Notes: generated from the letters alone by a model not told the origin. A stretch of DNA of 61,276 nt from an uncultured Candidatus Saccharibacteria bacterium (GCA_964451675.1 CAYVIL010000001.1:1-61276); one strand, 5' to 3'; numbered from the stretch's first letter, positions 605 to 59,936 are shown. A program made the numbers and translations.

Positions 605-613
605 TGTTATATT
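605..613 (+). promoter_or_regulatory. Extended -10 (TGtTATATT) 9 nt upstream of the thioredoxin-like ATG
   Basis: TG at 605..606 and hexamer at 608..613. There is no SD in the 9-nt gap to ATG 623. Confidence 0.5.
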
Positions 614-622
614 GTCTCAACT

Positions 623-895
623 ATGAAAGTTATCAAAATTGGTGCTGTCTGGTGTCCGGATTGCTTAGTAATGCGTCCTCGCTGGGCAGAAATCGAAAAC
701 GAATATCCAGAACTGGAAACGGAATATTACGATTACGATAATGATCAAGACGAGATTGATATGTACGATGTCGAAGCGGAAAGGCTTCCCGTCTTTATTT
801 TTTTAGACAACGACGGTGAAGAGATTACGAGTTTTAGCGGGGAATACAGTAAAGAAGATTTGGAAGAAATTCTGGCAGAACATGGGTTCATATAG
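623..895 (+). CDS. Small thioredoxin/glutaredoxin-fold protein with a WCPDC redox motif
   Basis: KIGAVWCPDC is a CxxC active site after beta1. The 90-aa size and acidic C-terminal half also fit the thioredoxin superfamily. Confidence 0.8.
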   Translation: MKVIKIGAVWCPDCLVMRPRWAEIENEYPELETEYYDYDNDQDEIDMYDVEAERLPVFIFLDNDGEEITSFSGEYSKEDLEEILAEHGFI

Positions 896-1008
896 CCTTG
901 GGGAAACACCGCACTTAAAATCATATTTTTGTACCTTAAATACAGCAGGTTTCCTCACCAATCTTTTATCTTAAAAACATTAACTAACTTTACTAACTTA
1001 TCACTATA

Positions 1009-1260
1009 ATGTTCAGTAACAATAAAAGCCTAACCTTAATCCTATTATCTATAATCCTCATAAATCTAATTTATCCAACCCCAACGTTGGCCCAACAAAC
1101 AAATTAAAACAAAGTTATAGTTCATTTTTTTGGGGAGATAAGAACAGCAGACGTATCTTTACCCGCACGCTCAATAATATTAGAACTCCTAGATGGATTC
1201 AATCCTTGTGCTATGTGGGCTCTACTGTTTCTGATTAGCTTACTGCTAAAAAATGGTTAA
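1009..1260 (+). pseudogene. Decayed remnant of a secreted or membrane thiol-disulfide protein
   Basis: One reading frame gives MFSNNKSLTLILLSIILINLIYPTPTLAQQTN*NKVIVHFFGEIRTADVSLPARSIILELLDGFNPCAMWALLFLISLLLKNG*. That is a signal peptide, an in-frame TAA at 1105..1107, a fragment of a thioredoxin-like beta1 strand (KVIVHFF) and one Cys-containing TM helix, followed by a stop. It is far too short to be functional. Confidence 0.4.
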
Positions 1261-1267
1261 TGTTCGG

Positions 1268-2200
1268 CTAAAAACTTAAGATTTCCGCTTCAACCTGCTC
1301 TTTCCTTATACGGAGAACACCAAATTTAAGAAGTGCTTTAATTGAAAGTTCTGTCCCTAAGGTAGCTAACACCATTATAGGAGCGGAAAATATTCTTAAG
1401 ACAATAAAAAGAGCTATCCCCAAAAATAAGGGGATGTATTTTAGAAACGGCTGTACTAAATTGTTTACCTGCTGCTCAATAACAAGACGAACACCATCGG
1501 CGGTAAGTCCGGGAATACTCCTTTCACGGATAAGTTCATCCATTATCTCCGAATCCGGCCTTAATAAAGACTTCTTCTGCTCCTCCGTTAAGTCCTCACT
1601 ACTTTCTAGTATTGAACGCGCCTCTGTTTTAAAAGCCTCCTCGTCTAAAAGCAATGTTCTCCCTCCCATTCCCAAACCGACGAAAACATTTTCAACAACT
1701 TGATTAGTAACAGAGCGCGGCAAGGTAATCCGTTCTGGCGTAAATTGAATACTATAAAGTCCTAGACCAATACTAAGAAGAATAACGAGAAGCATAAACA
1801 AATTTTCCAAATAATCTTCAAAAATCTCGCCAATATTCAATTCAGTAAAAAGGTGCGCCTTAGCATGAATTTTTTGGACGAAATAGTAAACTAGTAATAT
1901 CGAAATAATTAAAGCAGGAATATATATAACCATCTGATTGATCAACAAAACCATAGGAGCAACTACTACAACAGCTAAAAGAATCTGAAGATATTTATTA
2001 CTGAATAAATAACCACTTAGAGAAGAGAAGTTCATTGTTAAAACAAAAGCTATAAAAGAAGCAATCCCTAAAATTACAAAGTTAGTAACATTCAAAGGAA
2101 AATTCTCAATAAGCAGCGAAGTAGCCCACCAAAAACCAGATGAGGCAAGAAAGCTGAGTACAACCAGTGTTATTTTCGTGCCAAGAATTTTCCTGTTCAT
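1268..2200 (-). CDS. Polytopic membrane protein of unknown function; paralogue of 26260..27216
   Basis: 310 aa with multiple TM helices. The start overlaps the gap stop codon (ATGA at 2197..2200). It shares sequence landmarks with the 318-aa ORF at 26260..27216. Confidence 0.7.
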   Translation of the reverse strand: MNRKILGTKITLVVLSFLASSGFWWATSLLIENFPLNVTNFVILGIASFIAFVLTMNFSSLSGYLFSNKYLQILLAVVVVAPMVLLINQMVIYIPALIISILLVYYFVQKIHAKAHLFTELNIGEIFEDYLENLFMLLVILLSIGLGLYSIQFTPERITLPRSVTNQVVENVFVGLGMGGRTLLLDEEAFKTEARSILESSEDLTEEQKKSLLRPDSEIMDELIRERSIPGLTADGVRLVIEQQVNNLVQPFLKYIPLFLGIALFIVLRIFSAPIMVLATLGTELSIKALLKFGVLRIRKEQVEAEILSF

Positions 2201-3201
2201 GCAATAAGATTTACCAAATCAGCTAATCGAGAGGCGTAGCCATATTCATTATCGTACCAAGCCACAACTTTAATAAGATTTCCTTCCAAAACTTCAGTAA
2301 GGGCTAAATCTACAATAGCTGATGCTGAATTACCGATTATGTCCAAGGAAACCAAACTATCAGAATCATCAACCGCAAGTATATTTCGCATCGAGCTATC
2401 TGCTGCACTCCTTAAAGCATTGTTAACTTCTGTTACATCTGTATCACCTTTAACATAAGCAACAAGCTCAACCACAGAACCACAAAGAACAGGAACGCGG
2501 TAGGCCATACCGCTAAGCTTCCCCTCTAACTGCGGTATTACTTTTGTTACTGCTACAGCAGCACCTGTAGGCTGAGGAATAGCTGCACTAAACGCTGCAC
2601 GGGTTCTCCGTAGATTTTTGCTTGGACCATCAACAAGATTTTGAGTCGAGGTTACTGCATGTACTGTTATTAAATGAGCTGAATTTATCCCAAATGTATC
2701 ATTAAGAACTTTTACCACCGGTGCGGCACAGTTTGTGGTGCAGGAAGCATTAGAAATAATGCGGTGTTTAGAAAAATTTAAAGACTGATCATTGACCCCG
2801 AGCACAACAGTATAATCAGCACTTTTAGAATTAGCTGAAATAATAACTTTTTCAGCACCTGCGCCTAAGTGTTTTTTTGCATCATCACGGTCTGTAAACA
2901 ATCCGGTAGACTCGATCACTGTTTCCACATCCAAATCTTTCCAAGGCAGCGCTGCCGGATCTTTTTCGCTAAAAACTTTTATTTCTTGGCCACCTACCAA
3001 CATTCTATCCCCACTAACCTCAACATCAAAAGAAAATTCGCCGTAGACCGTATCTTTCCCCAAAAGGTGAGCGAGCATATCTACATTAGTAAGATCATTA
3101 ATAGCAACTACTGAAATGTCTTCTTGAAGGTTACGATTAAAAATTGAGCGGAGTGTGGCTCGGCCAATACGACCGAAACCATTAATTGCAATACGTGACA
3201 T
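2197..3201 (-). CDS. gap: Glyceraldehyde-3-phosphate dehydrogenase, type I
   Basis: INGFGRIGR (NAD-binding site), SNASCTTNCAAP (catalytic Cys) and C-terminal WYDNEYGY are present in a 334-aa protein. Confidence 0.95.
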   Translation of the reverse strand: MSRIAINGFGRIGRATLRSIFNRNLQEDISVVAINDLTNVDMLAHLLGKDTVYGEFSFDVEVSGDRMLVGGQEIKVFSEKDPAALPWKDLDVETVIESTGLFTDRDDAKKHLGAGAEKVIISANSKSADYTVVLGVNDQSLNFSKHRIISNASCTTNCAAPVVKVLNDTFGINSAHLITVHAVTSTQNLVDGPSKNLRRTRAAFSAAIPQPTGAAVAVTKVIPQLEGKLSGMAYRVPVLCGSVVELVAYVKGDTDVTEVNNALRSAADSSMRNILAVDDSDSLVSLDIIGNSASAIVDLALTEVLEGNLIKVVAWYDNEYGYASRLADLVNLIA

Positions 3202-3209
3202 GTAGTGTT

Positions 3210-3218
3210 AATTTAACA
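3210..3218 (-). promoter_or_regulatory. Extended -10 (TGtTAAATT) 8 nt upstream of the gap ATG
   Basis: The minus strand reads TGTTAAATT-aacactac-ATG, with no SD. Confidence 0.5.
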
Positions 3219-4461: not shown

Positions 4462-5250
4462 TTAAACTAACTCCTTATATAAATTAGATAACTTCTCTAT
4501 CTCTTCGTGAGTCCGTGTTTCTCCCACAGCTTCCAAACAGGCAAAAGCAACTGGTATCTGTCCATAGATATCGGCGGTTTGCTCATTAGCTACCAAAGCA
4601 TCCAAAAGAATCTGGCGCTTGGTAAAGTCGCTTGATTTCCAGCTGTCACTCCACCTTGTTTGTTCTGAAGAAACAGAAAGTATTTGATCTTCACCCCACA
4701 GACCCTGCAGTGTTTTTTGCAACAAATCAGAATTAGGAACAGCTAAATTCTTAACCGAGTTAACAACTATAGCTATAAGATTGCTAATAGCTGCAAACTC
4801 ATCCGTCATAATAAGCACAGAACCAGACTTAACCTCATGCTCCCTTAACCATTTTAGCTTTTCACTGTGTGACAGTGTACTTAACAAACTAGCGTCGGCA
4901 AATCGTGTTCCTTGCCCATCTATAACTAAGTAGTAAGGCTTGTCCAACGTATTGTAAACCGACAAACCGTAGTAACCTGCTCTTTTCAACTCTACTGGAA
5001 ATGACCCATCTATATACCTTTTATTCCCTCTAAAATAGGCCACTGCTCGATCACAACCAGGAAAAAAACCAGATAAAGGTCCTGTTGCTATTATTAATGT
5101 ATTCGACCTATTATTACGATCTTTTAAATCAGCAGATATTTTTAATGCAAAACCTAAACCACCCACGTAAGGTTCTAAATCAGCGTGCAGCTTCGGTTCT
5201 GCTAATTTAGTAGCTAGATCCACATACAAAAATCTCTTTTTATTATCCAC
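4462..5250 (-). CDS. Stand-alone aldehyde:ferredoxin oxidoreductase N-terminal (AFOR_N)-like domain protein
   Basis: FLYVDL..., GGLGFALKI, LIIATGPLSG and ELKRAGYYGLSVYN..KPYYLVIDGQGTRFADASLL run parallel to the N-domain of tungsten AORs. There is no CxxCxxxC cluster or pterin domain. I place the start at GTG 5250, because a perfect TGtTATAAT lies 10 nt upstream. The ORF-track ATG at 5340 abuts the upstream terminator T-tract. Confidence 0.65.
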   Translation of the reverse strand: MDNKKRFLYVDLATKLAEPKLHADLEPYVGGLGFALKISADLKDRNNRSNTLIIATGPLSGFFPGCDRAVAYFRGNKRYIDGSFPVELKRAGYYGLSVYNTLDKPYYLVIDGQGTRFADASLLSTLSHSEKLKWLREHEVKSGSVLIMTDEFAAISNLIAIVVNSVKNLAVPNSDLLQKTLQGLWGEDQILSVSSEQTRWSDSWKSSDFTKRQILLDALVANEQTADIYGQIPVAFACLEAVGETRTHEEIEKLSNLYKELV

Positions 5251-5260
5251 AGCAGGGGTA

Positions 5261-5269
5261 ATTATAACA
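5261..5269 (-). promoter_or_regulatory. Consensus extended -10 (TGtTATAAT) 10 nt upstream of GTG 5250
   Basis: The minus strand reads TGTTATAAT-tacccctgct-GTG. Confidence 0.55.
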
Positions 5270-6554: not shown

Positions 6555-6603
6555 CAATCTCCTCCTTTGCTTATCTGTAAGACCTGCTTATCCGGGTTAA
6601 AAG

Positions 6604-6632
6604 ATTATAACAGCAGCACAACTATCTAGCAA
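6604..6632 (-). promoter_or_regulatory. Near-consensus sigma70-type promoter of the cassette: TTGCTA-17 nt-TATAAT
   Basis: On the minus strand the -35 is at 6632..6627 and the -10 at 6609..6604, with an exact 17-nt spacer. The leader to the SD and ATG is about 40 nt. Confidence 0.7.
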
Positions 6633-6649: not shown

Positions 6650-8566
6650 TTAATCGACAATCTCGCCTTCTTCTGCATCTTGGGGAGGTTCTTGGTCACC
6701 ATTATTGCCTGTATCTTCACCTTCACCTGCTGGTGGCGTTTGGGGACCCGCAGCTTCGGGGTCTGCTGACTTGTAAAGTTCTGCACCAACCTTCTGAATT
6801 TCTTCTGACAACTCCTCAGTCTTGGACTTCAAGATACCAATATCAAGATTATCGCCTTTTTCCAGCTCTTCGCGGACTGCTTTAATTTTCTCTTCAATCG
6901 GTTTTTTTACATTATCGCCAATTTTATCTCCCGCATCTTTTAATGCTTTTTCTGCTGTGTAAGCTAGAGTCTCTGCCTGGTTGCGTGCTTCAACACGTTC
7001 TTTCTTTTTCTTATCTTCTTCCGCATGCTTTCCCGCTTCCTTTGCCATTCTCTCCGCTTCTTCCTCCGAAATACCTGTCGAACCTTTAATTGTAATCTTT
7101 TGCTCTTTGCCTGTTGCCTTGTCTTTTGCAGAAACATTTAAAATCCCGTTAGCATCAATATCAAAACTTACTTCAATCTGCGGCACACCGCGAGGAGCGG
7201 GAGGAATACCTTCCAATATAAAACGACCTAGGGACTTGTTGTCTGCCGCCATTTCCCGCTCACCCTGCAAAACATTAATTTCAACAGATGTCTGATTGTC
7301 CGCTGCAGTTGAGAAAATCTGTGATGCAGAAGTAGGAATTGTTGTGTTCCGCTCAATAAGAGGTGTTCGAACACCGCCAAGCGTCTCAATACCAAGTGTC
7401 AATGGCGTAACATCCAAGAGCAGTACATCTTTAACATCACCACCGAGTACCCCAGCCTGGATAGCAGCACCAACAGCAACAACCTCATCTGGATTCACCC
7501 CTTTGTGAGGTTCTTTACCAAAAAATTCTTGTACAGTTTCCATAATCTTCGGCATCCGCGTCTGTCCGCCAACCAAAATAACCTCATCAATATCATTTAC
7601 TGAAAGGTCAGCATCTTCAAGCGCTTTTTTGCACGGTTCAATTGACTGCTGAATCAACTCCTCTGTCAGCTGTTCCAATTTTGAACGGGTTAAAGTAGTA
7701 ACTAAATGTTTTGGACCTGTCTCATCTGCAGTAATGTAAGGAATATTTATTTCTGTTTCCATTTTTGAGGAGAGCTCAATTTTTGCTTTTTCAGAAGCGT
7801 CCCGTAGCCTCTGCATTGCCTGCTTATCCTCACTTAAGTCCATACCCTGATCCTTTTTAAATTCTTCAAGTAGCCAATCAATTATTCTTTGGTCAAAATC
7901 ATCGCCGCCTAAATGTGTATCACCATTTGTCGCGCGGACCTCATAAACACCATCACCAATTTCCAATATTGAAATATCAAAAGTACCGCCGCCAAGGTCG
8001 TAAACAGCAATTTGCTCATTCTCTTTTTTATCCAAACCGTAAGCCAAAGATGCAGCTGTCGGTTCATTAATAATCCGCAAAACTTCCAAACCAGCTATTT
8101 CACCAGCTTGCTTAGTTGCCTGACGCTGCGAATCGTCGAAGTAAGCAGGGACAGTTATTACAGCTTGTTCAACTTCGTGACCTAAAAAGTCTTCTGCATC
8201 CTGCTTACACTTCTGAAGAATCATTGCTGAAATTTCTTGGGGTGTAAAGGTTTTGCCCTCAACCTTAACCATAGCCATACCATTTTTTCCTTCCACAATT
8301 TCATAGGGCAACCATCTAATATCGTATTGGACGGATTGATCATTAAACCTTTTACCCATCAAGCGTTTTATAGAGAAAATGGTACTTTGCGGATTTACTA
8401 CTTGTGAACGCTTTGCAGGACGCCCCACAATATTTTTAACAGGATCAACCACCGAAGGAATAAGATTTTCACCTTCGGCAGAATGTATTACCTTCGGCTG
8501 CCCCCCTTCCATCACAGCCACGCAGCTATTTGTCGTTCCCAAATCAATACCAATTATTTTAGACAT
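6650..8566 (-). CDS. dnaK: Molecular chaperone DnaK (Hsp70)
   Basis: [18 protein letters not shown] and [11 protein letters not shown] are present, together with a full substrate-binding domain and an acidic C-terminal tail. Confidence 0.97.
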
Positions 8567-8696
8567 AAGTTTAAATTACCAATCCTCCTGTTTGATTAAC
8601 ACACCCATTATTCAATACACAAACACCAAAAGTAAAGCACACCAGACAACAACCTCTAAATACTGCTCATTAGTACTCTTTACAATAAACAAGTTA

Positions 8697-9134: not shown

Positions 9135-9143
9135 AAAAAATGA

Positions 9144-9173
9144 TTAGCCCTAGCAAGTCAAGCTCAGTGCTAA
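9144..9173. promoter_or_regulatory. Degenerate CIRCE-like inverted repeat upstream of grpE
   Basis: TTAGCCCTA-N12-CAGTGCTAA compared with the consensus TTAGCACTC-N9-GAGTGCTAA. The half-sites match 7/9 and 8/9, but the spacer is 12 nt rather than 9. Confidence 0.3.
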
Positions 9174-9181
9174 TCTATATG

Positions 9182-9907
9182 TTACCAAGCGCGTCCTATT
9201 TCGTTCAGTAAGTTTCCTACGTAACGTGCTAAAGGAATAACTTTACGGTACGGCAGCCTACTCGGCCCTACTACAGAAATGCGCCCCTCTCTCTTACCAA
9301 CCTCAAAAGGAGAAGAAACAATCGAACAGGTTGCTAAACCAGGAAAACCAATTTCGTCACCTATCAGCACGTGAACCTCTTTATCGCCAATCGCCTTACT
9401 AAAAATTTCTTGGAACACTTCAGGACGGTCCAAGAGTGACAGAACAGCTCTAGTAACGTCAATATCAAAAAACTCAGGATGATCAAGAATGTTAGCTGCA
9501 CCCGCGGACGTTAAAATCCCGTCTTTAGTAACAACCACACCTAAAACATTACTACCCTCGGCTAAAGCTAATGATGCATTACGTAGCAACCTCTCCAACT
9601 CAAAGCGATCTTGCCACAAACGTTGCTTTATAGCAACCTCTTCTAAAACAGGTAATTCTTTTTCCTCCATTAAAGAGTTTATATAGTGACGGTAAGCCAT
9701 AGGGGTTGGCTCTCTTCCAGCAGAAGCGTGGGGTTTTTCCAAAAGCCCTTTCCTGGAAAGCTCCACCATCTCATTACGAATAGTAGCGGAGGAAACGTCA
9801 GACAAATACTGATCAACAATCTTTTTGGAACTAACCGGCTCCGGGCTTTCCCCATATTCCTCAATAATTGCTTTCAATAGAGCTGTTTGGCGCTGAGTAA
9901 GATCCAT
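9182..9907 (-). CDS. hrcA: Heat-inducible transcription repressor HrcA (short, 241 aa)
   Basis: LTQRQTALLKAIIEEYGESPEPVSSKKI...SSATIRNEMVELSRKGLLEKPHASAGREPT is the typical HrcA winged-helix N-terminus. Confidence 0.85.
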   Translation of the reverse strand: MDLTQRQTALLKAIIEEYGESPEPVSSKKIVDQYLSDVSSATIRNEMVELSRKGLLEKPHASAGREPTPMAYRHYINSLMEEKELPVLEEVAIKQRLWQDRFELERLLRNASLALAEGSNVLGVVVTKDGILTSAGAANILDHPEFFDIDVTRAVLSLLDRPEVFQEIFSKAIGDKEVHVLIGDEIGFPGLATCSIVSSPFEVGKREGRISVVGPSRLPYRKVIPLARYVGNLLNEIGRAW

Positions 9908-9920
9908 AATCTTACTTAGC

Positions 9921-9972: not shown

Positions 9973-9981
9973 TGCTAGTAT
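9973..9981 (+). promoter_or_regulatory. Extended -10 (TGcTAGTAT) 8 nt upstream of ATG 9990
   Basis: Read directly. TTGATT lies 16 nt upstream as a possible -35. There is no SD. Confidence 0.5.
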
Positions 9982-9989
9982 AAATCCCG

Positions 9990-11807
9990 ATGCCCAACAA
10001 AAAATCTTCTATTTTAGGTAAACTAAACCCTCAGCAGGAGGGGGCTGTGCAACACACCAACGGCGCCTCCCTAATAGTTGCAGGACCAGGATCTGGCAAA
10101 ACCCGCGCGCTAACTCATAAAGCTGCGTACCTCGTCTGCGAAAAAAACGTAAACCCGCAAAATATCCTGCTAGTTACATTTACAAACAAAGCCGCAGAAG
10201 AAATGAAAAAAAGAATAAAAAAACTTCTTGCTGAAACAAATCCCCAAATCAGACACATTTCTTGGGCAGGAACTTTCCACTCCATTGGCGCACGGATTTT
10301 ACGCCAACACGGTAAGGAAATAGGTATAAGATCCGACTTTGTCATCTACGATACCAACGATAGTAAAACAACCATTAAAAAAGTAATTAAAAATGAAGGC
10401 TTAGACAGCGAAAAAATAAAAGCTCGTTCCGTAATGTACACTATTTCTGAAGCAAAAAGGGAGCTTATAAACGCTACCGAATATAGCAAAAAGGCTTACG
10501 GATACTATCAAGAACTAACCGCTCAAATATATAGAGGTTACGAATCATTGCTTCAGCAATCAAACGCTTTAGATTTTGGCGATCTACTCTTTATGCCTGT
10601 GCGTCTTTTAGAAGAATCCCCAAGCACATTGCAACAATACCAGGAGAAATTCAATTACATTTTAGTAGATGAATACCAGGATACAAACAGCGCCCAATAT
10701 ATGATGCTGAAACTTCTGGCTGCTAAAAACAACAATATTACTGTAGTTGGCGATCCCGGACAATCAATTTACGGGTTTAGAGGAGCAAACTTCAAAAACA
10801 TACTAAACTTTACACAAGACTATCCAAACGCAAAAACTTTTCGCCTAGAACAGAACTACCGATCGACACAATCCATTGTTAAAGCTGCACAAAACGTTAT
10901 TTCTAACAACAGACACAATATTGACTTAAATTTATGGACAAACAACTCAGAAGGAACACAGATAAAATATTACGAGGCATACAGCGAAACTGACGAGGCC
11001 GACTACATACTAAAAGAAATTATCAAAAAAGCAAGAGAAAAATCCCAACAGTCCCTAAGTGATTTTGCCATACTTTATCGCACCAATGCTCAATCGCGTG
11101 CTTTGGAAGAGTGCTTTGTCCAATCAGGCCTGCCTTACCGTCTGGTTGGGGGCACCCGTTTCTACGAAAGAAGGGAGATTAAAGATGTATTGGCTTTGCT
11201 TAGAGTTATTCTCAGCCCCAATGATTTTGCCAGTTGGGAGCGAATAGAAAAATGGGGAAAAACAAAAATGAAAAAGTACAAGAAAGATCTAAATCGAAAA
11301 CCAGACATAGTAAATAGCAACCCATTAAAAATCTTGGACTGGATATTAGAAAAAACTAGCTATCTGGATTACTGGGAAAATAAAGGCGAGGAAGAATATT
11401 ACCGATTAGAAAACGTAAAAGAACTAAGAACTGTTGCTGCCCGCTTCGATTCTCTAATTGATTTTCTAGAAAATGTAGCTTTAGTAGACTACTCTAACGA
11501 CTACTCCAAAAAGGAAGCTCCTAACGCTGTAACTTTAATGACCCTGCACTCGGCTAAGGGTTTGGAATTTCCAGTAGTATTCATAGTTGGGTTGGAGGAG
11601 GGGTTGTTACCTCATGCTAAATCTCTTAAAGAAGCCGGGGGCATAGAGGAAGAGCGCCGTCTGTGTTATGTTGGCATGACCCGAGCAAAAAAAGAACTTC
11701 ACTTAACAAAAGCGCAAAAGCGGTTCTACTTTGGATCCCACCAGTACAATCCAACATCTCGATTTATAGAAGAAATACCGAACAGTCTTCTTAGGTGGTA
11801 TACTTAA
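9990..11807 (+). CDS. UvrD/PcrA/Rep-family superfamily-1 DNA helicase (605 aa)
   Basis: AGPGSGKT (Walker A), VDEYQDTN, GDPGQSIYGFRGA, QNYRS, TLHSAKGLEF and YVGMTRAK are all present. Confidence 0.9.
   Translation: MPNKKSSILGKLNPQQEGAVQHTNGASLIVAGPGSGKTRALTHKAAYLVCEKNVNPQNILLVTFTNKAAEEMKKRIKKLLAETNPQIRHISWAGTFHSIGARILRQHGKEIGIRSDFVIYDTNDSKTTIKKVIKNEGLDSEKIKARSVMYTISEAKRELINATEYSKKAYGYYQELTAQIYRGYESLLQQSNALDFGDLLFMPVRLLEESPSTLQQYQEKFNYILVDEYQDTNSAQYMMLKLLAAKNNNITVVGDPGQSIYGFRGANFKNILNFTQDYPNAKTFRLEQNYRSTQSIVKAAQNVISNNRHNIDLNLWTNNSEGTQIKYYEAYSETDEADYILKEIIKKAREKSQQSLSDFAILYRTNAQSRALEECFVQSGLPYRLVGGTRFYERREIKDVLALLRVILSPNDFASWERIEKWGKTKMKKYKKDLNRKPDIVNSNPLKILDWILEKTSYLDYWENKGEEEYYRLENVKELRTVAARFDSLIDFLENVALVDYSNDYSKKEAPNAVTLMTLHSAKGLEFPVVFIVGLEEGLLPHAKSLKEAGGIEEERRLCYVGMTRAKKELHLTKAQKRFYFGSHQYNPTSRFIEEIPNSLLRWYT
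11796..11804 (+). promoter_or_regulatory. Extended -10 (TGgTATACT) 10 nt upstream of ATG 11815, inside the 3' end of the helicase gene
   Basis: Read directly; no SD. Confidence 0.45.
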
Positions 11808-11814
11808 TAGCAGT

Positions 11815-12528
11815 ATGGAAAGAGTCGTTGCTCTCAGCCTTTTAGCAGTTACATCTATAGGAAACGTTTTGCCAGTAGCAGCGGAAACAAGCATATCCGA
11901 ACCAAAAGCTACACTTAAACAGGTAGATTATGTTACTGCTAAACCTATTCTGGAAACCAACACACGCTTTGGAACAAAAGATACTCAAACAGTTACCACC
12001 ATTCCTTTCGAACAAGAAATTATTGAAGATAATGAATTAGAATACGGCAAAGAAATAATTGAGCGCGAAGGAACAAATGGACAAGTAATCAAGCATTTCC
12101 AAATAACTTATTGGGATGGTAAAGAAGTTGAGAGAAAATTGACAAAAACAGAAAAAATACCGCCAACAAACGAAACAATCCGCCGTGGTACCAAAGATGT
12201 ATGGCACCTGTACAACACCCCGGAACAAGGGCGTGTCAGCTACTGGGCTAAACTAGAAAATGTTTGGGCTACATCTTACGATGGTAATTGCGTAGGTTGT
12301 CGCGGGCTGACCTACAGCGGAACCAAAGTTACCAAAGGTGTCTGCGCTGTGGATCCGAATCTGATACCTTTAGGCACTAACATATACATTCCAGGCTATG
12401 GTTTCTGCCGTGCGGAAGATATCGGAGGTGGTATAAAAGGGCACAGAATTGATCTTGGATTTGAAAATGTTGCCAACGGGTCCTGGTCAGCTAGGTACAC
12501 AAATGTTTACCTATTAACCAAACCATAA
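11815..12528 (+). CDS. Secreted G5-domain plus 3D-domain (MltA/RlpA-like barrel) cell-wall protein
   Basis: A signal peptide is followed by G5-like REGTNGQVIKHFQITYWDGKEVERKL...IRRGTK. The C-terminus GTKVTKGVCAVDPNLIPLGTNIYIPGYGFCRAEDIGGGIKGHRIDLGF is a 3D domain. Confidence 0.75.
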   Translation: MERVVALSLLAVTSIGNVLPVAAETSISEPKATLKQVDYVTAKPILETNTRFGTKDTQTVTTIPFEQEIIEDNELEYGKEIIEREGTNGQVIKHFQITYWDGKEVERKLTKTEKIPPTNETIRRGTKDVWHLYNTPEQGRVSYWAKLENVWATSYDGNCVGCRGLTYSGTKVTKGVCAVDPNLIPLGTNIYIPGYGFCRAEDIGGGIKGHRIDLGFENVANGSWSARYTNVYLLTKP

Positions 12529-18255: not shown

Positions 18256-18262
18256 ACTATTT

Positions 18263-18271
18263 ATGCTAACA
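18263..18271 (-). promoter_or_regulatory. Extended -10 (TGtTAGCAT) 7 nt upstream of ATG 18255
   Basis: The minus strand reads TGTTAGCAT-aaatagt-ATG. Confidence 0.45.
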
Positions 18272-18492: not shown

Positions 18493-19515
18493 TTAAGAAT
18501 CACTATCAGATAACTCAAGCTGGTCCAAGTCGGGAGGAATCCCCTCGCCCGCATCACGTAGCATTCTGACACTTTCTATACGACCAGAAAGTTTTTGGTA
18601 CTGGCTCGCTGTTCTATCCATTGCGTTTTTAGCGTTAGTAATATGGCGAGACAATACGCTTAACTCATCTCCAAAATTCTCCGCTTCTCTGCTGATAGAA
18701 CCAAGAACCTGCAATATCTTTTGCGCACTTTCTGCCACTTTCTTTTCTTGTAAACCTAAGAGCAAAATCTTCAAAAAATAGGTAAAAGTATTAGGAGATA
18801 CAAAAGTAACTTTACGTTGATACGCGTAATCATCTAAATCTTCGCTTTGAACAGCAACTTCGTAGTAGACCGCCTCAGAAGGAATGTACATTAAAGCAAA
18901 GTTAATTGTTCCTTCACCAGGAATAATATACTTCTTACTTATAGCATCAATATGTTTTTTTACATCGCGGACGAATTTTTTACGGTAGCTTTCTTTTTCT
19001 TCTTCCGAATCTGCATGCATTAATTTTTTAAAATTTTCCATAGGAAATTTAGCATCAATTGGAATCAACCCTTGATCCGTTTTAATAATCGCATCCACAA
19101 TATTACCGTCTGTAAATTGATACTGAGTATCATACTGGGCTGCTGGCAGAGTTTGGGCAAGAGTATCGGCCAAAACTTTTTCACCAACACCACCACGAAG
19201 CTTTGGGGATTGCAAAAAATCTTGTAAATCCTTGATCATCTTGCTGGTTTCCCGCATCGTACCCAATTCCTTCTGCACACCAGCAAAAACTTTTGCCGCC
19301 TCACTCAACCGACTATTCATTTTATCCAAACGCTTATCGGTAATATCTTTAGTTTGGTCAATACTTTGGCGCGTATTCTTCAACCATTCCATCAACATCT
19401 TCTGAGCCTCACTATCTTCCCCTCTCGTCAGCTGACTAAATTTTCGATTAAAGTAATAAAACAAAGCAGCAAAACCGCCAATGATAACTGCTATAATTAG
19501 TAATTCATAAGCCAT
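18493..19515 (-). CDS. rmuC: DNA recombination protein RmuC
   Basis: N-terminal TM plus coiled coil, then IPIDAKFPMENF and FALMYIPSEAVYYE, which are typical of the RmuC nuclease-like domain. Confidence 0.85.
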   Translation of the reverse strand: MAYELLIIAVIIGGFAALFYYFNRKFSQLTRGEDSEAQKMLMEWLKNTRQSIDQTKDITDKRLDKMNSRLSEAAKVFAGVQKELGTMRETSKMIKDLQDFLQSPKLRGGVGEKVLADTLAQTLPAAQYDTQYQFTDGNIVDAIIKTDQGLIPIDAKFPMENFKKLMHADSEEEKESYRKKFVRDVKKHIDAISKKYIIPGEGTINFALMYIPSEAVYYEVAVQSEDLDDYAYQRKVTFVSPNTFTYFLKILLLGLQEKKVAESAQKILQVLGSISREAENFGDELSVLSRHITNAKNAMDRTASQYQKLSGRIESVRMLRDAGEGIPPDLDQLELSDSDS

Positions 19516-19525
19516 GTTAATATTT

Positions 19526-19534
19526 AGTATAGCA
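19526..19534 (-). promoter_or_regulatory. Extended -10 (TGcTATACT) 10 nt upstream of the rmuC ATG
   Basis: The minus strand reads TGCTATACT-aaatattaac-ATG. Confidence 0.45.
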
Positions 19535-20276: not shown

Positions 20277-20302
20277 TACAAGAATTATGCTAGAATACCG
20301 CT

Positions 20303-20770
20303 ATGAAGTTCCCAAAAACAGAGTTAAAAGCGTGCTGTTTTATAAAAAAGAAGGGTAAAGTCTTCTTAGTACGGTATCCAACCAACGAAGGAAAACTAGG
20401 CCCTTGGTGTCTCCCTTGCAGCAGAGCAAAACAGGGAGAAAACATTGGTAAAAACGTAGAACGCAAAATCCTCGAGGAAACTGGTCTATTAGTAAAAACT
20501 ATAGCACCCAAGCTATTTGTGAAACCAAAAGCAGAATATCCCGTAGACGGTATCGATCACCGCTCTTATAAAGGTAAACTAACATTTACACTGGTTAGCG
20601 AAGCAGTAATAATTTCTGGAAAACCAGCTATGCGTAAAAAAGGTGCGCAGTACAAATGGGCCAAACTCAAAGACGCAGAAAAAGAAGATTTATCCGCAGA
20701 AGTAAAGGAAGCAGTAAACTTCTTCCTTGACAAGAAGAGAAGTAAACCCTTCTCCCCCATTACAATATAA
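20303..20770 (+). CDS. Divergent NUDIX-family hydrolase
   Basis: GENIGKNVERKILEETGL fits the E-x7-R-(E/K)-U-x-E-E-x-G-U part of the Nudix box. The upstream GG of the box is replaced (LPCS). Confidence 0.55.
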   Translation: MKFPKTELKACCFIKKKGKVFLVRYPTNEGKLGPWCLPCSRAKQGENIGKNVERKILEETGLLVKTIAPKLFVKPKAEYPVDGIDHRSYKGKLTFTLVSEAVIISGKPAMRKKGAQYKWAKLKDAEKEDLSAEVKEAVNFFLDKKRSKPFSPITI

Positions 20771-20978: not shown

Positions 20979-20987
20979 TGTTAAAAT
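20979..20987 (+). promoter_or_regulatory. Extended -10 (TGtTAAAAT) 8 nt upstream of ATG 20996
   Basis: Read directly; no SD. Confidence 0.5.
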
Positions 20988-39943: not shown

Positions 39944-40018
39944 GGCCCGATAGCCAAGTGGTAAGGCGGGAGTCTGCAAAACTCCTATGCGCCGGTTCGA
40001 ATCCGGCTCGGGCCTCCA
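39944..40018 (+). tRNA. tRNA-Cys (anticodon GCA), with CCA encoded
   Basis: The cloverleaf was folded by hand. The acceptor stem GGCCCGA/TCGGGCC is perfect, the anticodon stem is GGAGT/ACTCC with loop CTGCAAA, and the T-arm is GCCGG-TTCGAATC-CGGC. Discriminator T plus CCA gives 75 nt. Confidence 0.9.
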
Positions 40019-47688: not shown

Positions 47689-47697
47689 TGGTATCAT
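47689..47697 (+). promoter_or_regulatory. Extended -10 (TGgTATCAT) 9 nt upstream of the rpsO ATG; TTGCCT -35 lies 18 nt upstream
   Basis: Read directly; no SD. Confidence 0.5.
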
Positions 47698-47706
47698 TGG
47701 TCTGTT

Positions 47707-47976
47707 ATGGCATTAGAAAAGAAAGAAAAAAGCGATATTATTGATGAATTTAAAATCCACAAGGGTGACACAGGTTCACCGGAAATACAGATCGCGTTAC
47801 TAGCTAAGAAAATAGAAAAGCTCACCGATCATTTAAAAGAGCATAAGAAGGACCACCATTCGCGCCGTGGATTATTAAAAACTGTTAATAAACGACGGCG
47901 ACTACTTATGTATCTTAGAAACAAAGACGAAGATAGGTACCAGAAAGTGATTGAAAAAATCGGAATAGACTTTTAG
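47707..47976 (+). CDS. rpsO: 30S ribosomal protein S15
   Basis: [71 protein letters not shown] place the start at ATG 47707; the track start at 47668 is a TTG extension. Confidence 0.92.
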
Positions 47977-54662: not shown

Positions 54663-55364
54663 CTAAAAGGTACTCAATTCTTGCATAAAATAGCTAACAG
54701 TTTTAGCCCAGGAACCCCCTTTATCAATAGATAATGGACAATATTTTGTCATTATCTGTTCAGGAGTAACCAAACCCTGCTCGTAGTATTCCTCCTTCAG
54801 GTAGCGGGTAACACGCTCAATACCCTCTTCAAAAGAGCTGAAATGCTTAGTACCTCGTTCATGAATACCGTAACCCCAAAAATTATAGGAGCCGGGGGGA
54901 TATGTACGCCCAAATGTGGATTCAGCACCTGCAATTGCTATAGGCAGCCGCCAGTCAACACCATATTTGTCAGCAGTGTCTACTAACACCTTGGCATAAG
55001 GTGCTAAAGGTGATTTACGAGCACTCAAATAACGCTTCACAATTAATGGTCTTGCATCACCATAAATTAAACTTTCGTAACTAGAAGAATAAACTGGCGG
55101 GTTTGCGGAAAAAACGCCGTACACTTGAGGTACAATACGCTGCTCAATACGAATCACATTCAAAGGATTAAAAAGCACAAATAAACAAGAACCCATCAAA
55201 ACAACTGTTGATATAACAAAGAAAACAAGAGGAAAAGTAAATAGTAGTAATTTGCCAGTAGGCAGGCGAGATTTTATCATAAAATAAATAAATATCCGCA
55301 AACAGAAGCAATACAAAACTAGCATAATTAAAAAAAAATTGCAAAAAAAGTCTTCACGTGACAT
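54663..55364 (-). CDS. Membrane-anchored mannosyl-glycoprotein endo-beta-N-acetylglucosaminidase-like (glucosaminidase domain) protein
   Basis: YAKVLVDTADKYGVDWRLPIAIAGAESTFGR...YNFWGYG is present. The start is uncertain, with an alternative ATG at 55280. Confidence 0.65.
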   Translation of the reverse strand: MSREDFFCNFFLIMLVLYCFCLRIFIYFMIKSRLPTGKLLLFTFPLVFFVISTVVLMGSCLFVLFNPLNVIRIEQRIVPQVYGVFSANPPVYSSSYESLIYGDARPLIVKRYLSARKSPLAPYAKVLVDTADKYGVDWRLPIAIAGAESTFGRTYPPGSYNFWGYGIHERGTKHFSSFEEGIERVTRYLKEEYYEQGLVTPEQIMTKYCPLSIDKGGSWAKTVSYFMQELSTF

Positions 55365-55367
55365 ACT
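55359..55367 (+). promoter_or_regulatory. Extended -10-like element (TGaCATACT) 9 nt upstream of the ftsK ATG
   Basis: Read directly; no SD. Confidence 0.4.
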
Positions 55368-55376
55368 TTAATTACT

Positions 55377-57671
55377 ATGGCTAGAAAACGTAGATCGCGG
55401 CGGCGAACAATTAAATTCAAACTAAAAAAGGACACTGCTCAATCAATAACCGCTACCACCCTCTTATTTCTCGGAGTTATCTCTCTGTTGTCTTTTTTTG
55501 GACAGGCTGTTGGAATTGGTGTCAAAAATGTATTAAGCATCTTTTTTGGTTGGCTAGCTATTCTAATACCTCTTATCTTTATACTAACCGGCTTAGTATT
55601 ACTAAGACGTATAAAATGGTCTTTTGTTAAACTAAGAACACTACTTGGGCTTATATCAGCTACCCTGCTCACTGCAGCAACTATCCACTTCTTTTTCCCC
55701 CAAAGCACTGCTTACGAACAGGGTTCTATGGGAGAAGGGGGAGGTTTAGCAGGATACTTTATCCAAAGATTCCTAAGACAACATCTTTCTCCACTAGGAG
55801 CAGCAGCAACTTTAATATTTCTCACCTTAACAAGTATCCTCATTTTGTTCAATTCATCTCTAGACGCTGTAATAAAAATCATTAACAGAATAAGTGAGGA
55901 GTTCGCCGCCTTTTATAAACACTATATTAAAAGGAATAAAAATGAGCTAGAAAAGGAAGATGGGGAGAAAGTAAACGAAACAGACGCACAAGAAGAACTG
56001 GATACTACAGAACCTCAATTCATAACGCAGCAGGGTGGAAAATTGGTAACTGAAAAGAAGGAAGAAAAACACGAGGAAAAAGATTTTGCCAAATTTGAAC
56101 TTATAAACATAGTGGGCACAAGGTCATCGGAAAAAACAGAAGAAACAGAAATTAATGTACAGCAATCGGATCAGAACACAACTTCGCAGGACACAGACAA
56201 AACAGAAACAAAAAAGAAAAAGCCTCCCGAATGGAAACAGCCCCCGTTATCACTACTTTCTGAAACACAAGGTGAAGAAGCAGAAAGAGGAGACATTAAA
56301 AAAAACGCTGACCTAATAGAGAAAACTCTCAACGCTTTCGGTGTAGAAGCAAAGGTAGTTGAGGTAAATTTAGGACCCTCAGTCACTCAATACGCCATAG
56401 ACCTAGCAGAAGGCACAAAAGTATCGAAAGTTGTCAGCCTACAAAACAACCTTGCAATGGCCCTAGCAGCTCCTACCGGAATGGTCAGAATAGAAGCACC
56501 TATACCTGGAAAGGCTTTAGTTGGTATTGAAGTACCAAATTATCAAGCTGCCCTAGTTACGCTTAAAGACATAATGACTTCAGATCAGATGCAAAAAGCA
56601 CAAGATAAATTAACAGTAGCTCTGGGACACGATGTGTCCGGTGAACCTGTCATAACAAATATTTCAAAAATGCCTCATGTGTTAATAGCTGGCACAACTG
56701 GTTCCGGTAAATCTGTACTTTTAAACGCCTTTTTATCAACATTACTTTTCCGAAATTCTCCTGAAGACTTGCAATTGCTTCTTATTGACACCAAACGTGT
56801 GGAATTTTCTGCTTACAACGACATGCCTCACCTCCTACACCCTGTAATTGTTGAACCTGAAAAGGTACTTTCCTCGCTTAAATGGGCTGTTGAAGAAATG
56901 GAAAAAAGATACAGAATACTGCAAAAAGAAAAAGTTAAAAATCTAGACAGTTATAACCAGCTGCCTAACGTAGAAAAAATTCCTTATATTTTAATTTTAG
57001 TTGATGAACTAGCAGATTTGATGGGCTACTCACCAAACGAAGTAGAAAAAGCTGTTTGCCGCCTAGCTCAGATGGCCCGCGCTGTAGGCATTCATCTAGT
57101 ACTAGCAACACAAAGACCAAGCACAGAAGTTCTCACAGGGCTAATCAAAGCTAATATCCCTTGCCGCATCGCCTTCCAAGTCGCTTCCCAAATAGATTCC
57201 CGAGTCATTCTAGATACAAGCGGCGCAGAAAAACTAATGGGTAAAGGTGACATGCTCTTTTTACCTCCAGACCGTCCTAAACCATTAAGAATACGCGGAG
57301 TTTACGTATCTGAAAAAGAGTTAGAAAAACTAAGGAACTTCCTAAAAAATAGTGGGCATGATCCTAATTATCAAGCTGAAATTACAGAAACAAAGAGCGA
57401 ATTTACAGACAGTCCTTTTGATAAACCAGAGGATGACAAATTCTACGATGCTGTAGAAGTGGTGTGTAACCACGGGCGCGCATCTGCGTCACTGCTACAA
57501 AGACGTTTGCGTGTCGGTTACGCCCGTGCAGCAAGATTACTAGATGCTATGCATGACAGAGGTATTATTGGACCACACAACGGCTCCAACCCAAGAGAAG
57601 TCCTTATTGATGACCTCTCACAAATCATTAGCAGGGGTGGGGATAACGAACTTGAAAGTCAGAATCTATAA
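55377..57671 (+). CDS. ftsK: DNA translocase FtsK
   Basis: Four or five N-terminal TM helices and a charged linker are followed by the motor domain, with HVLIAGTTGSGKS and LILVDELADLM. The gamma winged-helix ASASLLQRRLRVGYARAARLLDAM is also present. Confidence 0.92.
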   Translation: MARKRRSRRRTIKFKLKKDTAQSITATTLLFLGVISLLSFFGQAVGIGVKNVLSIFFGWLAILIPLIFILTGLVLLRRIKWSFVKLRTLLGLISATLLTAATIHFFFPQSTAYEQGSMGEGGGLAGYFIQRFLRQHLSPLGAAATLIFLTLTSILILFNSSLDAVIKIINRISEEFAAFYKHYIKRNKNELEKEDGEKVNETDAQEELDTTEPQFITQQGGKLVTEKKEEKHEEKDFAKFELINIVGTRSSEKTEETEINVQQSDQNTTSQDTDKTETKKKKPPEWKQPPLSLLSETQGEEAERGDIKKNADLIEKTLNAFGVEAKVVEVNLGPSVTQYAIDLAEGTKVSKVVSLQNNLAMALAAPTGMVRIEAPIPGKALVGIEVPNYQAALVTLKDIMTSDQMQKAQDKLTVALGHDVSGEPVITNISKMPHVLIAGTTGSGKSVLLNAFLSTLLFRNSPEDLQLLLIDTKRVEFSAYNDMPHLLHPVIVEPEKVLSSLKWAVEEMEKRYRILQKEKVKNLDSYNQLPNVEKIPYILILVDELADLMGYSPNEVEKAVCRLAQMARAVGIHLVLATQRPSTEVLTGLIKANIPCRIAFQVASQIDSRVILDTSGAEKLMGKGDMLFLPPDRPKPLRIRGVYVSEKELEKLRNFLKNSGHDPNYQAEITETKSEFTDSPFDKPEDDKFYDAVEVVCNHGRASASLLQRRLRVGYARAARLLDAMHDRGIIGPHNGSNPREVLIDDLSQIISRGGDNELESQNL

Positions 57672-57716
57672 CAAAAAAACTGCACCAACTTTCCTCGTCT
57701 ACATATTTAATACAAA

Positions 57717-57986
57717 ATGAAAAGCATAAAAGATATACTAGCTAACAAAGAAATAGAACAACAACCTAAATACGTAACTAAGGAATTCCAGGCCTACGGT
57801 TACCGCCTGGCCGAGGAGTTGGACGATTTAAAGCACAAAGCTTTATACATCAAACTAGCTAAAGAAGAACCGCGTGCCCGTTTAGATAAAGCACTGGAAT
57901 TTGTAAAATCAAGCAACCCCAAAAGCAAAGCAAAACTATTTATGTGGAAGTTGAAAAAATTAAGGGAGGATACAAATTCAAACTAA
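57717..57986 (+). CDS. Small basic helical protein, unknown function (89 aa)
   Basis: ORF only; no motif recognised. Confidence 0.4.
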   Translation: MKSIKDILANKEIEQQPKYVTKEFQAYGYRLAEELDDLKHKALYIKLAKEEPRARLDKALEFVKSSNPKSKAKLFMWKLKKLREDTNSN

Positions 57987-58131
57987 ACCTCACCCCCGCC
58001 ATTTTACTTAGGGTAATTTGCGATCCTGTTTACGCCCCATCACCCCCCTAAATCTATGAACAGGCTAACAGGCTAACAGAGTAACATGTTCGTGATCAAC
58101 ATAGTATTTAACTCTTTAGAAAAATACAGAG

Positions 58132-59919
58132 CTAGTTTCGTTGTACTATGTCATATAGCGAACTCCACAAAGCTAAATAGCCTCGGGAGCGCATTACAAA
58201 AATCTTCCTGAACCGCTTGCCGTCTAAAACTTCTCCATCAGGATAATTTTCCGAAGCTACAAATATATTTTCCGTGTAACCATCTTCCGAATCAGCTAAC
58301 TTTATCTCTGTAATTTCACCAACAGGATCAATACCTTCATCTTCTAAAGCTTCTTTAACATCATCTTTACTCCAACCTTCGTCTGTAGAAACACCAGGGA
58401 CAGGGTCTTCCTGAGAAAGGTGTTCATCATAGCTTTCTGGAAGAAGGGTAGCATTAAGTAGATCTTGCATTTCTTCCTCAGTTAGCCACGGATGTTCATC
58501 ATAAGAGGAATCAAACCATGCTTTATAAAACCAAGGAGAATCACCCCACTCAGAGCCATCGTAAGCATTACCATCCCCATCGTAATCCTTCATCCGCTTC
58601 GTGTAACTTGGAGAAGAATTCCATTTAACATCAAAATCAGTAGGTAAGCGGGTAAACCCTCCAGCAGTAGAAGAGTACCAGGCTTTTATGGGAGAGCCAC
58701 CGTGTGTTATAACCTTGCCTTCAGTTTCTTCCACTGCTTTGTGCCAATTAGCAGCAGCATCATTATCTACTTTAGATGCCAGATAAACTTGGCAGCGCTG
58801 GGTTGTACAAATAGGGGAGGAGCCGTTGCCAGTTGCGGCTAGCGCATATGTACGGGCAGCAATTGCTTGGGCCTTTAGTGCTTCCATACCACCATCACTA
58901 CCCCAGTAAGAAGGCATTTCTGCAATACCTTTTAAATAATTGCCCTCGAAATCAATCTCCTCCGTACCGGAACCGGAATAAATCGTGATAGTATCAGGAC
59001 AATTGTAATCAACAATATCAACATCTTTGTAATAAGCTTTTAAAATATCTTTGTAAGACTGTCCTGCTTTGGAACGGCCGTAGGCACCGTACTGGTTCAT
59101 ACCCACACGGTGGGGATACCCACGGGAAAAAACAGCATAAGCAGGGGAAAACGGAGGCTCAGGTAAAGATTGAATTGCTGGCTCACGGTCACCAACGGAC
59201 GTAAACTCTGCAGTAGCAGAAAGTTTTTCCCGGATCAACTCCTGCATTCTACTACTAAGCGAACTAATCTCGTTCAACAGCTCGTTTTTATACATCTGCA
59301 GCTCATTAATTCGTTCCGCAGTACGCTGCTTACGGATTGCTAAAACTTCCTGCTCTCTGTTTAAACGTGTTATCTCTTGCTCCAATCTTGCCTTTGCTTG
59401 TTCTTCTGTTTCAATTCGCCCTTTTAACTCAATAATTTCTTTACTCAGCTCCTCTGCTTGCTTCTTTATTTCTTTAATCGTTACCTCGAAAATCATTAGC
59501 TTTTGAGTAAATTCTGAAAAGCCATCACTGGAAAACAAAATGGTTAATGGATCAGCTTGCCCCCTCTTATAAAGATCACGGATTAGTTTTGCCCTAACCT
59601 CTTCTTTTTGGGCATACTGGTCTTCGCGGGAATCTTTCTCTTCCTCTAATTTGGCTATCTCATCCCTTTTTTGGGCCAATAAATAAGAATTAGAAGAAAG
59701 CTGATTATTTATCTGTCCTATTTGATTACTGTAACCAGATATCTGCTGATTCAGAGACCCTGTTTCATCCTCGACTTGCGCCAACTCATCTTCTTTAGCT
59801 GACTTTTCATCCTGCAGTTCCGAATAATCGCCCGCAAATACAGGAAGGACAACAGCAGACACTGCTATTAAAAGGAGAAATACAATTGCGGCAAGGTGTT
59901 TTTTGGGCAGAGTAAACAT
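58132..59919 (-). CDS. SpoIID/LytB-domain cell-wall protein with a long N-terminal coiled coil
   Basis: A signal/TM segment is followed by about 230 aa of heptad-like Q/E/K repeats. The SpoIID core follows: GMNQYGAYGRSKAGQSYKDILKAYY, ALKAQAIAARTYAL and WYSSTAGGFT. Confidence 0.8.
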   Translation of the reverse strand: MFTLPKKHLAAIVFLLLIAVSAVVLPVFAGDYSELQDEKSAKEDELAQVEDETGSLNQQISGYSNQIGQINNQLSSNSYLLAQKRDEIAKLEEEKDSREDQYAQKEEVRAKLIRDLYKRGQADPLTILFSSDGFSEFTQKLMIFEVTIKEIKKQAEELSKEIIELKGRIETEEQAKARLEQEITRLNREQEVLAIRKQRTAERINELQMYKNELLNEISSLSSRMQELIREKLSATAEFTSVGDREPAIQSLPEPPFSPAYAVFSRGYPHRVGMNQYGAYGRSKAGQSYKDILKAYYKDVDIVDYNCPDTITIYSGSGTEEIDFEGNYLKGIAEMPSYWGSDGGMEALKAQAIAARTYALAATGNGSSPICTTQRCQVYLASKVDNDAAANWHKAVEETEGKVITHGGSPIKAWYSSTAGGFTRLPTDFDVKWNSSPSYTKRMKDYDGDGNAYDGSEWGDSPWFYKAWFDSSYDEHPWLTEEEMQDLLNATLLPESYDEHLSQEDPVPGVSTDEGWSKDDVKEALEDEGIDPVGEITEIKLADSEDGYTENIFVASENYPDGEVLDGKRFRKIFVMRSRGYLALWSSLYDIVQRN

Positions 59920-59927
59920 AGTAACTT

Positions 59928-59936
59928 ATTTTAACA
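59928..59936 (-). promoter_or_regulatory. Extended -10 (TGtTAAAAT) 8 nt upstream of the SpoIID-like ATG
   Basis: The minus strand reads TGTTAAAAT-aagttact-ATG. Confidence 0.5.

Follow-up and report, generated by a model that had tools for sequence, protein, structure and literature searches.

The stretch of DNA studied here, 61,276 nt from an uncultured Candidatus Saccharibacteria bacterium (GCA_964451675.1, CAYVIL010000001.1:1-61276; hereafter the window), was analyzed for short promoter-like boxes that directly precede its start codons. An earlier note on this sequence had listed 15 extended -10 boxes of the type TGnTAnnnT placed 7-10 nt before initiation codons and had proposed that many mRNAs of this organism are leaderless. 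All 15 boxes are present where the note had placed them and at the spacers it gave. Fourteen fit the TGnTAnnnT pattern, while the box of ftsK (TGaCATACT) does not, and none of the 15 gaps holds a Shine-Dalgarno (SD) site of the GGAG type, as the note had said. Two further cases, dnaK and a NUDIX gene, had been missed. The gene names given in the note agree with Pfam, which confirms thioredoxin, GAPDH, AFOR_N, UvrD, G5/3D, a UvrD-PDDEXK helicase-nuclease, RmuC, DnaJ, S20, MurJ, PGK, RodZ, S15, FtsK and SpoIID; PNPase, AlaRS, LCP and the HrcA-GrpE-DnaK group are also Pfam-supported in the window. Our analysis covered this 61-kb window and ~170 kb of loci from relatives. As the gene set we employed 55 long, mutually non-overlapping open reading frames (ORFs), each with a mechanically assigned first ATG, GTG or TTG.

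Boxes directly upstream of start codons

On the plus strand, the first box precedes the thioredoxin-like gene (605-625), where TGtTATATT is separated from the ATG by 9 nt. The uvrD-like helicase gene (9973-9992) follows with TGcTAGTAT and a gap of 8 nt before its ATG, and the G5/3D gene (11796-11817) with TGgTATACT 10 nt before an ATG. This latter box lies within the 3' end of uvrD and would thus be an internal promoter. TGcTAGAAT is located 6 nt before the ATG of the NUDIX gene (20288-20305, start at 20303), and TGtTAAAAT 8 nt before that of the dnaJ-like gene (20979-20998). For murJ (22869-22887), TGcTATACT stands 7 nt ahead of a candidate GTG start located 14 codons inside the mechanical ORF. 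The remaining plus-strand genes all start with ATG: pgk (32231-32249; TGtTAAAAT, 7 nt), rodZ (38157-38177; TGtTATACT, 9 nt), rpsO, encoding uS15 of 89 aa (47689-47709; TGgTATCAT, 9 nt), and ftsK (55359-55379; 9 nt), whose box carries a non-canonical C at -12 and is situated inside the coding sequence of the divergent neighbor. The start codons of ftsK and this divergent ORF of 233 aa are only 12 nt apart (55364-55377), and thus each promoter must sit inside the coding sequence of the other gene.

On the minus strand, gap, encoding GAPDH (3199-3218), shows TGtTAAATT 8 nt before its ATG, and the AFOR_N-domain gene (5248-5269) TGtTATAAT 10 nt before a GTG. The box of dnaK (8564-8581, start at 8566) is TGgTAATTT with a gap of 6 nt to the ATG; an AGGAGG is found 16 nt upstream of this gene, too distant for normal SD action. 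The helicase-nuclease gene (18253-18271; TGtTAGCAT, 7 nt), rmuC (19513-19534; TGcTATACT, 10 nt), rpsT, encoding bS20 (22624-22644; TGtTATTAT, 9 nt), and the SpoIID-like gene (59917-59936; TGtTAAAAT, 8 nt) all begin with ATG. A weak case is alaS (32091-32109), which has only a non-extended TACTAT 10 nt upstream of the start of MTSKDIRK.

The motif peaks next to start codons

Across the whole window, TGnTAnnnT occurs 190 times compared to 169 ± 12 copies expected from shuffles, and is not over-represented overall. Any test of the motif must therefore be positional. At a spacer of 6-10 nt, the motif was found upstream of 11 of the 55 mechanical starts. This corresponds to a density of 33 per 1000 positions, as compared to 0-5.5 per 1000 in the other bins within ±150 nt. 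Under a null model in which motif copies are placed uniformly 0-60 nt upstream, the binomial P is 1e-6, and Fisher's test comparing the mechanical starts with every other ATG of the window yielded P = 1e-10. Shuffling each gene's own 60 upstream nucleotides 5000 times produced a mean of 0.5 cases and a maximum of 4. Applied to bases 1-50,000 of Escherichia coli K-12, the same script returned the motif at none of 44 mechanical and one of 42 annotated starts. The peak next to the start codons is confirmed and lies far beyond chance. The earlier note had suggested a genome-wide check of positional enrichment; run on the window and on the loci of relatives (see below), such a check came out in favor of its proposal, with a peak beyond what shuffled composition yields.

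For a curated set, every start codon with a box at a spacer of 6-11 nt was listed, and five over-extended ORFs were corrected. We obtained 16 strict cases plus ftsK among the 55 genes (~30%), which represent about 41-44% of the operon-first genes. The spacers of these 17 cases are 6 nt in two genes, 7 nt in three, 8 nt in four, 9 nt in five and 10 nt in three, with a median of 8 nt; 15 of the start codons are ATG and two are GTG. Candidates with a non-extended box at 30316, 38038, 52345, 27216, 41984 and 43231 were not counted, as plain TAnnnT is unenriched.

Conceivably, such a peak could be a by-product of AT-rich intergenic composition combined with a choice of starts that was itself guided by the motif. 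The lack of an overall motif excess would fit this explanation, as would the fact that the earlier note had selected the internal starts of six ORFs by the motif itself. However, the peak persists with the mechanical starts, where shuffled upstream regions reach so much less, and it is also seen with database gene calls in relatives while being absent in E. coli. Moreover, support for the internal starts comes from Pfam coordinates, from orthologues and from solved structures of bS20. We thus tested and rejected this explanation, to which we assign practically no likelihood.

Corrected gene starts

The note had also claimed that the motif picks out the sensible internal start in ORFs that are otherwise read too far upstream. 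Homology supports this for rpsO, rpsT, the helicase-nuclease and the AFOR_N gene. The orthologues of rpsO encode 88-99 aa, and the closest ones begin with MALEK, matching the window start at 47707. An alignment with solved bS20 chains pairs residue 17 of the long rpsT ORF with their residue 4, and thus the protein starts at 22626. For the helicase-nuclease, position 1 of the UvrD profile corresponds to residue 25 of the long ORF, which is residue 9 when counted from the motif-selected start, and for the AFOR_N gene, position 2 of the Pfam profile corresponds to residue 36 of the long ORF and to residue 6 from the motif-selected start. The start of alaS is supported as well, since its orthologues begin with M(N/T)ARELI... 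and align with MTSKDIRK at 32093, but its box is a TACTAT lacking the TG. The wording "less cleanly", which the note had used for this gene, was accurate.

Gene finders that favor a ribosome-binding site (RBS) or the longest ORF over-extend rpsO and rpsT by 13 codons each, the helicase-nuclease and alaS by 16 each and the AFOR_N gene by 30. Judged by their sequences, the N-terminal pieces added in this way, e.g. lcfasllcyycsa, look like translated promoter DNA. The rpsO call in one relative (L011) is 102 aa long and over-extended exactly like the version in the ORF list of the window. Database calls extended to a TTG upstream of a conserved extended -10 box were observed at two places, namely dnaJ of L006 (5126-5158) and rpsO of L011 (545-583). 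A comparison of ribosomal proteins from the Candidate Phyla Radiation (CPR) has likewise cautioned that extensions at the N terminus may be products of start prediction (PMC9297842).

The box has the character of a promoter

Aligned on the hexamer, the 17 cases share the TG (17/17), T-12 (16/17), A-11 (17/17) and T-7 (17/17). A consistent -35 element was not found among them; it is weak, with TTG present in ~7 of the 17. The non-coding 8.2% of the window holds 43 of the 190 motif copies, i.e. a 3.3-fold higher density. Furthermore, the box occurs at the leaderless spacing in 14 of 34 operon-first genes compared to 2 of 19 internal genes (P = 0.019).

The same box is found at units of a different kind. 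TGcTAAAAT lies 21 nt upstream of the tRNA-Cys gene (39914-40018, plus strand). Two protein-coding units have it at the head of a leader: TGcTATAAT is followed by 36 nt containing GAGGAGGG and then the ATG of an ORF of 78 aa (269-316, plus strand), and TGtTATAAT is followed by 46 nt containing AAAGGAGGAGA at the first gene of a three-gene cassette (6555-6612, minus strand). The box thus appears to drive a non-coding gene and SD-led units as well.

Between box and start codon, the sequence consists of 29% C and 11% G and holds no GGAG, GAGG or AGGA, compared to 44% A and 11% C at the corresponding positions of the other genes. A pyrimidine directly precedes the start codon in 14 of the 17 candidates vs 20 of the 38 other genes (P = 0.04). 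With a pyrimidine at -1, a start codon read as Y-A-T or Y-G-T (Y, pyrimidine) forms a pyrimidine-purine-pyrimidine (Y-R-Y) start element, to which mapped bacterial transcription start sites (TSSs), centered 7 bp downstream of the -10 box, are drawn (PMC12641261).

The motif might instead act in the mRNA, as a U/A-rich element that binds or enhances the ribosome independently of an SD (group B of the GeneMarkS-2 classification) within longer leaders made from promoters further upstream. Its distance to the start codon is indeed the usual one for a ribosome-binding site, and SD sites are rare in the window (five strong ones in 55 genes, with 4-mer cores unenriched). In contrast, a TG two bases before T-A-n-n-n-T is the signature of the contact by sigma-70 region 3.0 and of no known ribosome-binding site. 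Group B motifs also precede first and internal genes alike (PMC6028130) and lie inside the leader, whereas the box is largely missing from internal operon genes, as judged by the 14/34 vs 2/19 distribution. The occurrences before a tRNA gene and 36-46 nt upstream of genes with their own SD do not fit a ribosome-binding element either, and at ftsK (12 nt from the divergent gene) and rmuC (34 nt) there is no room for another promoter upstream. We consider an mRNA element very improbable. Taken together, the sequence data support that TGnTAnnnT acts as a promoter rather than as a translation signal. All computational tests that we ran point toward such promoters abutting the start codons, as the earlier note had proposed.

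Conservation among relatives

PNPase homologues place the window within Patescibacteria, where the nearest ones are 77% and 75% identical, followed by a group at 55-59%; named matches include the Patescibacteria group, Woykebacteria and WWE3. We compared ten rpsO-pnp loci from relatives, the seven closest of which show 55-77% PNPase identity and a GC content of 38-52%. In one locus labeled Cloacimonetes (L015), the sequence preceding rpsO is too short to be of use, and pgk matches among the genome contigs were at most 33% identical and were left out of the comparison.

Upstream of rpsO, an extended -10 box at a spacer of 8-11 nt is present in all seven closest relatives (TGgTATCAT, TGaTATCAT, TGtTATTAT, TGaTAGTAT, TGgTAGTAT, TGgTAATAT and TGgTATCAT), while the spacer sequences are unrelated. 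At pnp, 45-120 nt downstream of rpsO, none of the same seven relatives has the box. TGnTAAAAT precedes dnaJ in four of four loci, with a spacer of 8 nt in the window and of 10 nt in L006, L009 and the Woykebacteria locus L013. A conserved TGnTTAAAT lies ~9 nt upstream of ftsK in L006, L008, L009 and L010, and TAAAnT is found at a spacer of 8-9 nt before rodZ in L006 and L009. The alaS orthologues of L008 and L009 have TAnnnT at a spacer of 10 nt, and the NUDIX gene of L013 an extended -10 box at 6 nt. In the WWE3 locus (L014), extended -10 boxes are located 8-10 nt before uvrD (10 nt), corA and chlI, and AGGAGG occurs on other genes. When nine loci from relatives were pooled using the database gene calls, the box was found 6-11 nt upstream of 17 of 139 starts (P = 3e-8, a value inflated by the repeated rpsO orthologues). 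This equals 20 per 1000 positions, compared to 1-5 elsewhere.

Proposed leaderless or near-leaderless initiation

In the mechanism we propose, TGnTAnnnT would be the extended -10 element of the housekeeping sigma factor, placed 6-10 nt (median 8 nt) upstream of the start codon. RNA polymerase, starting ~7 nt past the hexamer, would place the 5' end of the transcript at the first base of the start codon (A or G) or 1-4 nt ahead of it. The resulting mRNA would leave no room for an SD site, and its 5'-terminal or near-terminal AUG or GUG would be bound directly by the ribosome together with initiator tRNA. Genes that are leadered or internal to operons would rely on a classic GGAGG (5 genes) or only on an A-rich upstream region or tight coupling (~25 genes). 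Given the sequence evidence, we regard it as likely, with good confidence, that the boxes are housekeeping-sigma extended -10 promoters abutting the starts and that these genes are translated in leaderless mode. As TSS positions and translation mode are here deduced from the motif, its peak, its promoter-like behavior, its conservation and the corrected starts, we consider the overall reading supported rather than proven.

The exact 5' end of the transcripts deserves closer inspection. For the five candidates with spacers of 6-7 nt, the A or G of the start codon falls at position 7-8 past the hexamer, and thus these mRNAs should be strictly leaderless. For the twelve candidates with spacers of 8-10 nt, the start codon comes at position 9-11, and most of them also have a pyrimidine-purine (Y-R) dinucleotide at position 6-8. 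The promoters could therefore be real while the TSS lies at this Y-R, 6-8 nt past the hexamer, in which case most mRNAs would carry a fixed leader of 1-4 nt. Initiation would still be independent of an SD, and the ribosome would have to tolerate short 5' extensions; at rpsO, the leader would start at a conserved G three nucleotides before the AUG. This explanation overlaps with leaderless initiation and differs from it in the exact 5' end only. It draws on the 12 of 17 spacers that put the first base of the start codon at 9-11, compared to the E. coli optimum of 7-8, and on the Y-R dinucleotides just described, and a purine (G or A) is present at position 7-8 in 7/7 rpsO orthologues. Conversely, four of the five candidates with short spacers have the A or G of their start codon within a Y-R-Y, and the pyrimidine at -1 in 14 of 17 cases makes the start codon itself a Y-R-Y element. 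Moreover, the distances between -10 box and TSS are unusually variable in Nanosynbacter lyticus (PMC12641261). We hold a fixed short leader to be possible, albeit somewhat doubtful. By either route, leaders of 0-4 nt should be expected from the sequence, none of which could accommodate an SD.

Several observations weigh against the proposed mechanism. The median spacer of 8 nt, often 10 nt in relatives, exceeds the 6-8 nt of Actinobacteria and Deinococcus by ~2 nt, and under E. coli rules this longer spacer places the start of most transcripts 1-4 nt before the AUG. In E. coli, leaderless mRNAs are translated less well when nucleotides are added at their 5' end. A TAnnnT that lacks the TG, counted at spacers of 6-11 nt after removal of the extended cases, occurs 9 times in 330 positions, which is about background. 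The G5/3D and NUDIX genes sit inside apparent operons. Finally, the sequencing runs found to carry the window are three DNA runs of microbial-mat metagenomes and no RNA run.

The predicted leaderless or near-leaderless initiation may extend beyond this organism. We suggest tentatively, and as less than probable, that it is a lineage-wide habit in a large part of Patescibacteria, the pattern being visible here in the clade of the window, Woykebacteria and WWE3, and that the distance from -10 box to AUG exceeds that of Actinobacteria and Deinococcus by ~2 nt. If so, one of two properties would follow: the CPR polymerase and sigma factor select a TSS farther from the -10 box, or mRNAs with leaders of 1-3 nt are efficient templates for the reduced CPR ribosome. 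Many published 'CPR-specific N-terminal extensions', those of ribosomal proteins included, would then be artefacts of start calling.

Shine-Dalgarno sites and genes without a signal

A strong and well-placed SD (GGAGG or AGGAG at 3-9 nt) was found in only five of the 55 genes, namely the ORF of 78 aa at 314, the LCP gene and the three genes of the cassette. Such sites are nevertheless enriched over other ATGs (P = 0.005), while 4-mer SD cores are not enriched at the gene starts of the window. In approximately 25 of the 55 genes, both the SD and the start-abutting -10 box are absent, as in pnp, virB4 and the genes starting at 48047, 44889, 45581, 50215 and 51180; the last eight bases upstream of these signal-less genes are 44% A. 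We thus arrive at the same result as the earlier note, which had assigned GGAGG-type SDs to the LCP and cassette genes and no obvious signal to pnp and virB4. From the five well-placed sites we infer that the anti-SD is probably intact in this organism. In a study of CPR ribosomes, the anti-SD was missing only in some Parcubacteria (PMC9297842). The arrangement described here is relevant chiefly to the annotation of gene starts in CPR genomes and to how the reduced ribosomes of CPR bacteria initiate on many genes devoid of an SD.

Comparison with known systems

The arrangement resembles that of the bacteria placed in group C by GeneMarkS-2, in which a Pribnow box lies 6-8 nt from the starts of operon-first genes, an RBS is used elsewhere and 25-50% of the operons are leaderless (PMC6028130). 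This group has been reported mainly for Actinobacteria and Deinococcus-Thermus (PMC6028130). As in Mycobacterium, Streptomyces, Corynebacterium and Deinococcus (Lomsadze et al. 2018, PMC6028130), a TAnnnT box stands at a short, constant spacing ahead of operon-first genes, no SD separates the two, and programs that expect an RBS call starts too far upstream or at the wrong place. The affected share is similar (~25-50% of operons there, about 41-44% of operon-first genes here). Differences exist as well. Patescibacteria/CPR stand outside the clades reported as group C (PMC6028130), the extended TG is present in almost every box of the window, spacers range over 6-10 nt (median 8 nt) instead of 6-8 nt, and SD sites are very rare in the remaining genes (5/55).

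The box also has features in common with the sigma-70 promoters of the extended -10 type (TGnTATAAT) known from E. coli and Gram-positive bacteria, namely the TG one base upstream of the hexamer, the conserved T-12, A-11 and T-7, and a -35 element that is weak or dispensable. A Y-R(-Y) at the expected start position, as judged by the start-site rules of PMC12641261, is shared as well. Unlike these, the predicted promoters of the window stand directly against start codons, and their discriminator is C-rich and G-poor. Similarly, a 5'-terminal AUG is translated in the absence of an SD in the lambda cI mRNA made from pRM and in other individual leaderless mRNAs of E. coli. They are isolated exceptions, however, whereas the predicted leaderless genes here would amount to a habit at the level of the genome, extending to genes for ribosomal proteins, glycolysis, chaperones and cell division.

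In the literature library that we searched, no paper on leaderless mRNAs in CPR, Patescibacteria or Saccharibacteria was found, apart from mentions in reference lists. Our data thus support the known group C organization in a phylum for which we found no published description of it. A deep-branching, uncultured phylum with reduced ribosomes would thereby join the few bacteria that use leaderless translation as a principal mode, with rpsO, rpsT, gap, pgk, dnaK, dnaJ, ftsK and rodZ among the core genes covered. Moreover, the compact rule relating promoter and start could be used to define transcription units in metagenome-assembled genomes of CPR bacteria.

Other features of the window

The genes hrcA, grpE and dnaK follow one another on the minus strand, with dnaK having its own predicted start-abutting promoter. 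The leader of grpE contains an imperfect inverted repeat (9142-9175; GATTAGCCCT-N14-AGTGCTAATC) that resembles CIRCE (TTAGCACTC-N9-GAGTGCTAA). It is located downstream of a TGgTAACAT box, which is 44 nt from the start. Across the start of hrcA (9905-9907, minus strand) spans a 12-nt inverted repeat (9892-9920; GCTGAGTAAGAT / ATCTTACTTAGC), whose arms are 92% complementary and 5 nt apart. This repeat may serve as an operator, or it may form a hairpin in the RNA over the start codon.

A tandem repeat (58062-58086), consisting of two copies of AGGCTAAC and a variant, AGAGTAAC, is found in the intergenic region between an ORF of 89 aa and the end of the SpoIID-like gene. ARAGORN proposed a 'tRNA-???' with a two-base anticodon at 34487-34572, inside the ORF 34276-34929; it has no Rfam support and is probably a false positive.

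In all 5-kb bins of the window (1-61276), the GC skew is either close to zero or negative, reaching down to -0.21. The AT skew attains values of up to +0.29 in regions of plus-strand genes and is about 0 in regions of minus-strand genes. This pattern suggests a replication-strand bias on top of the purine loading of coding strands. A comparable strand disparity has reportedly been published for a Microgenomates genome.

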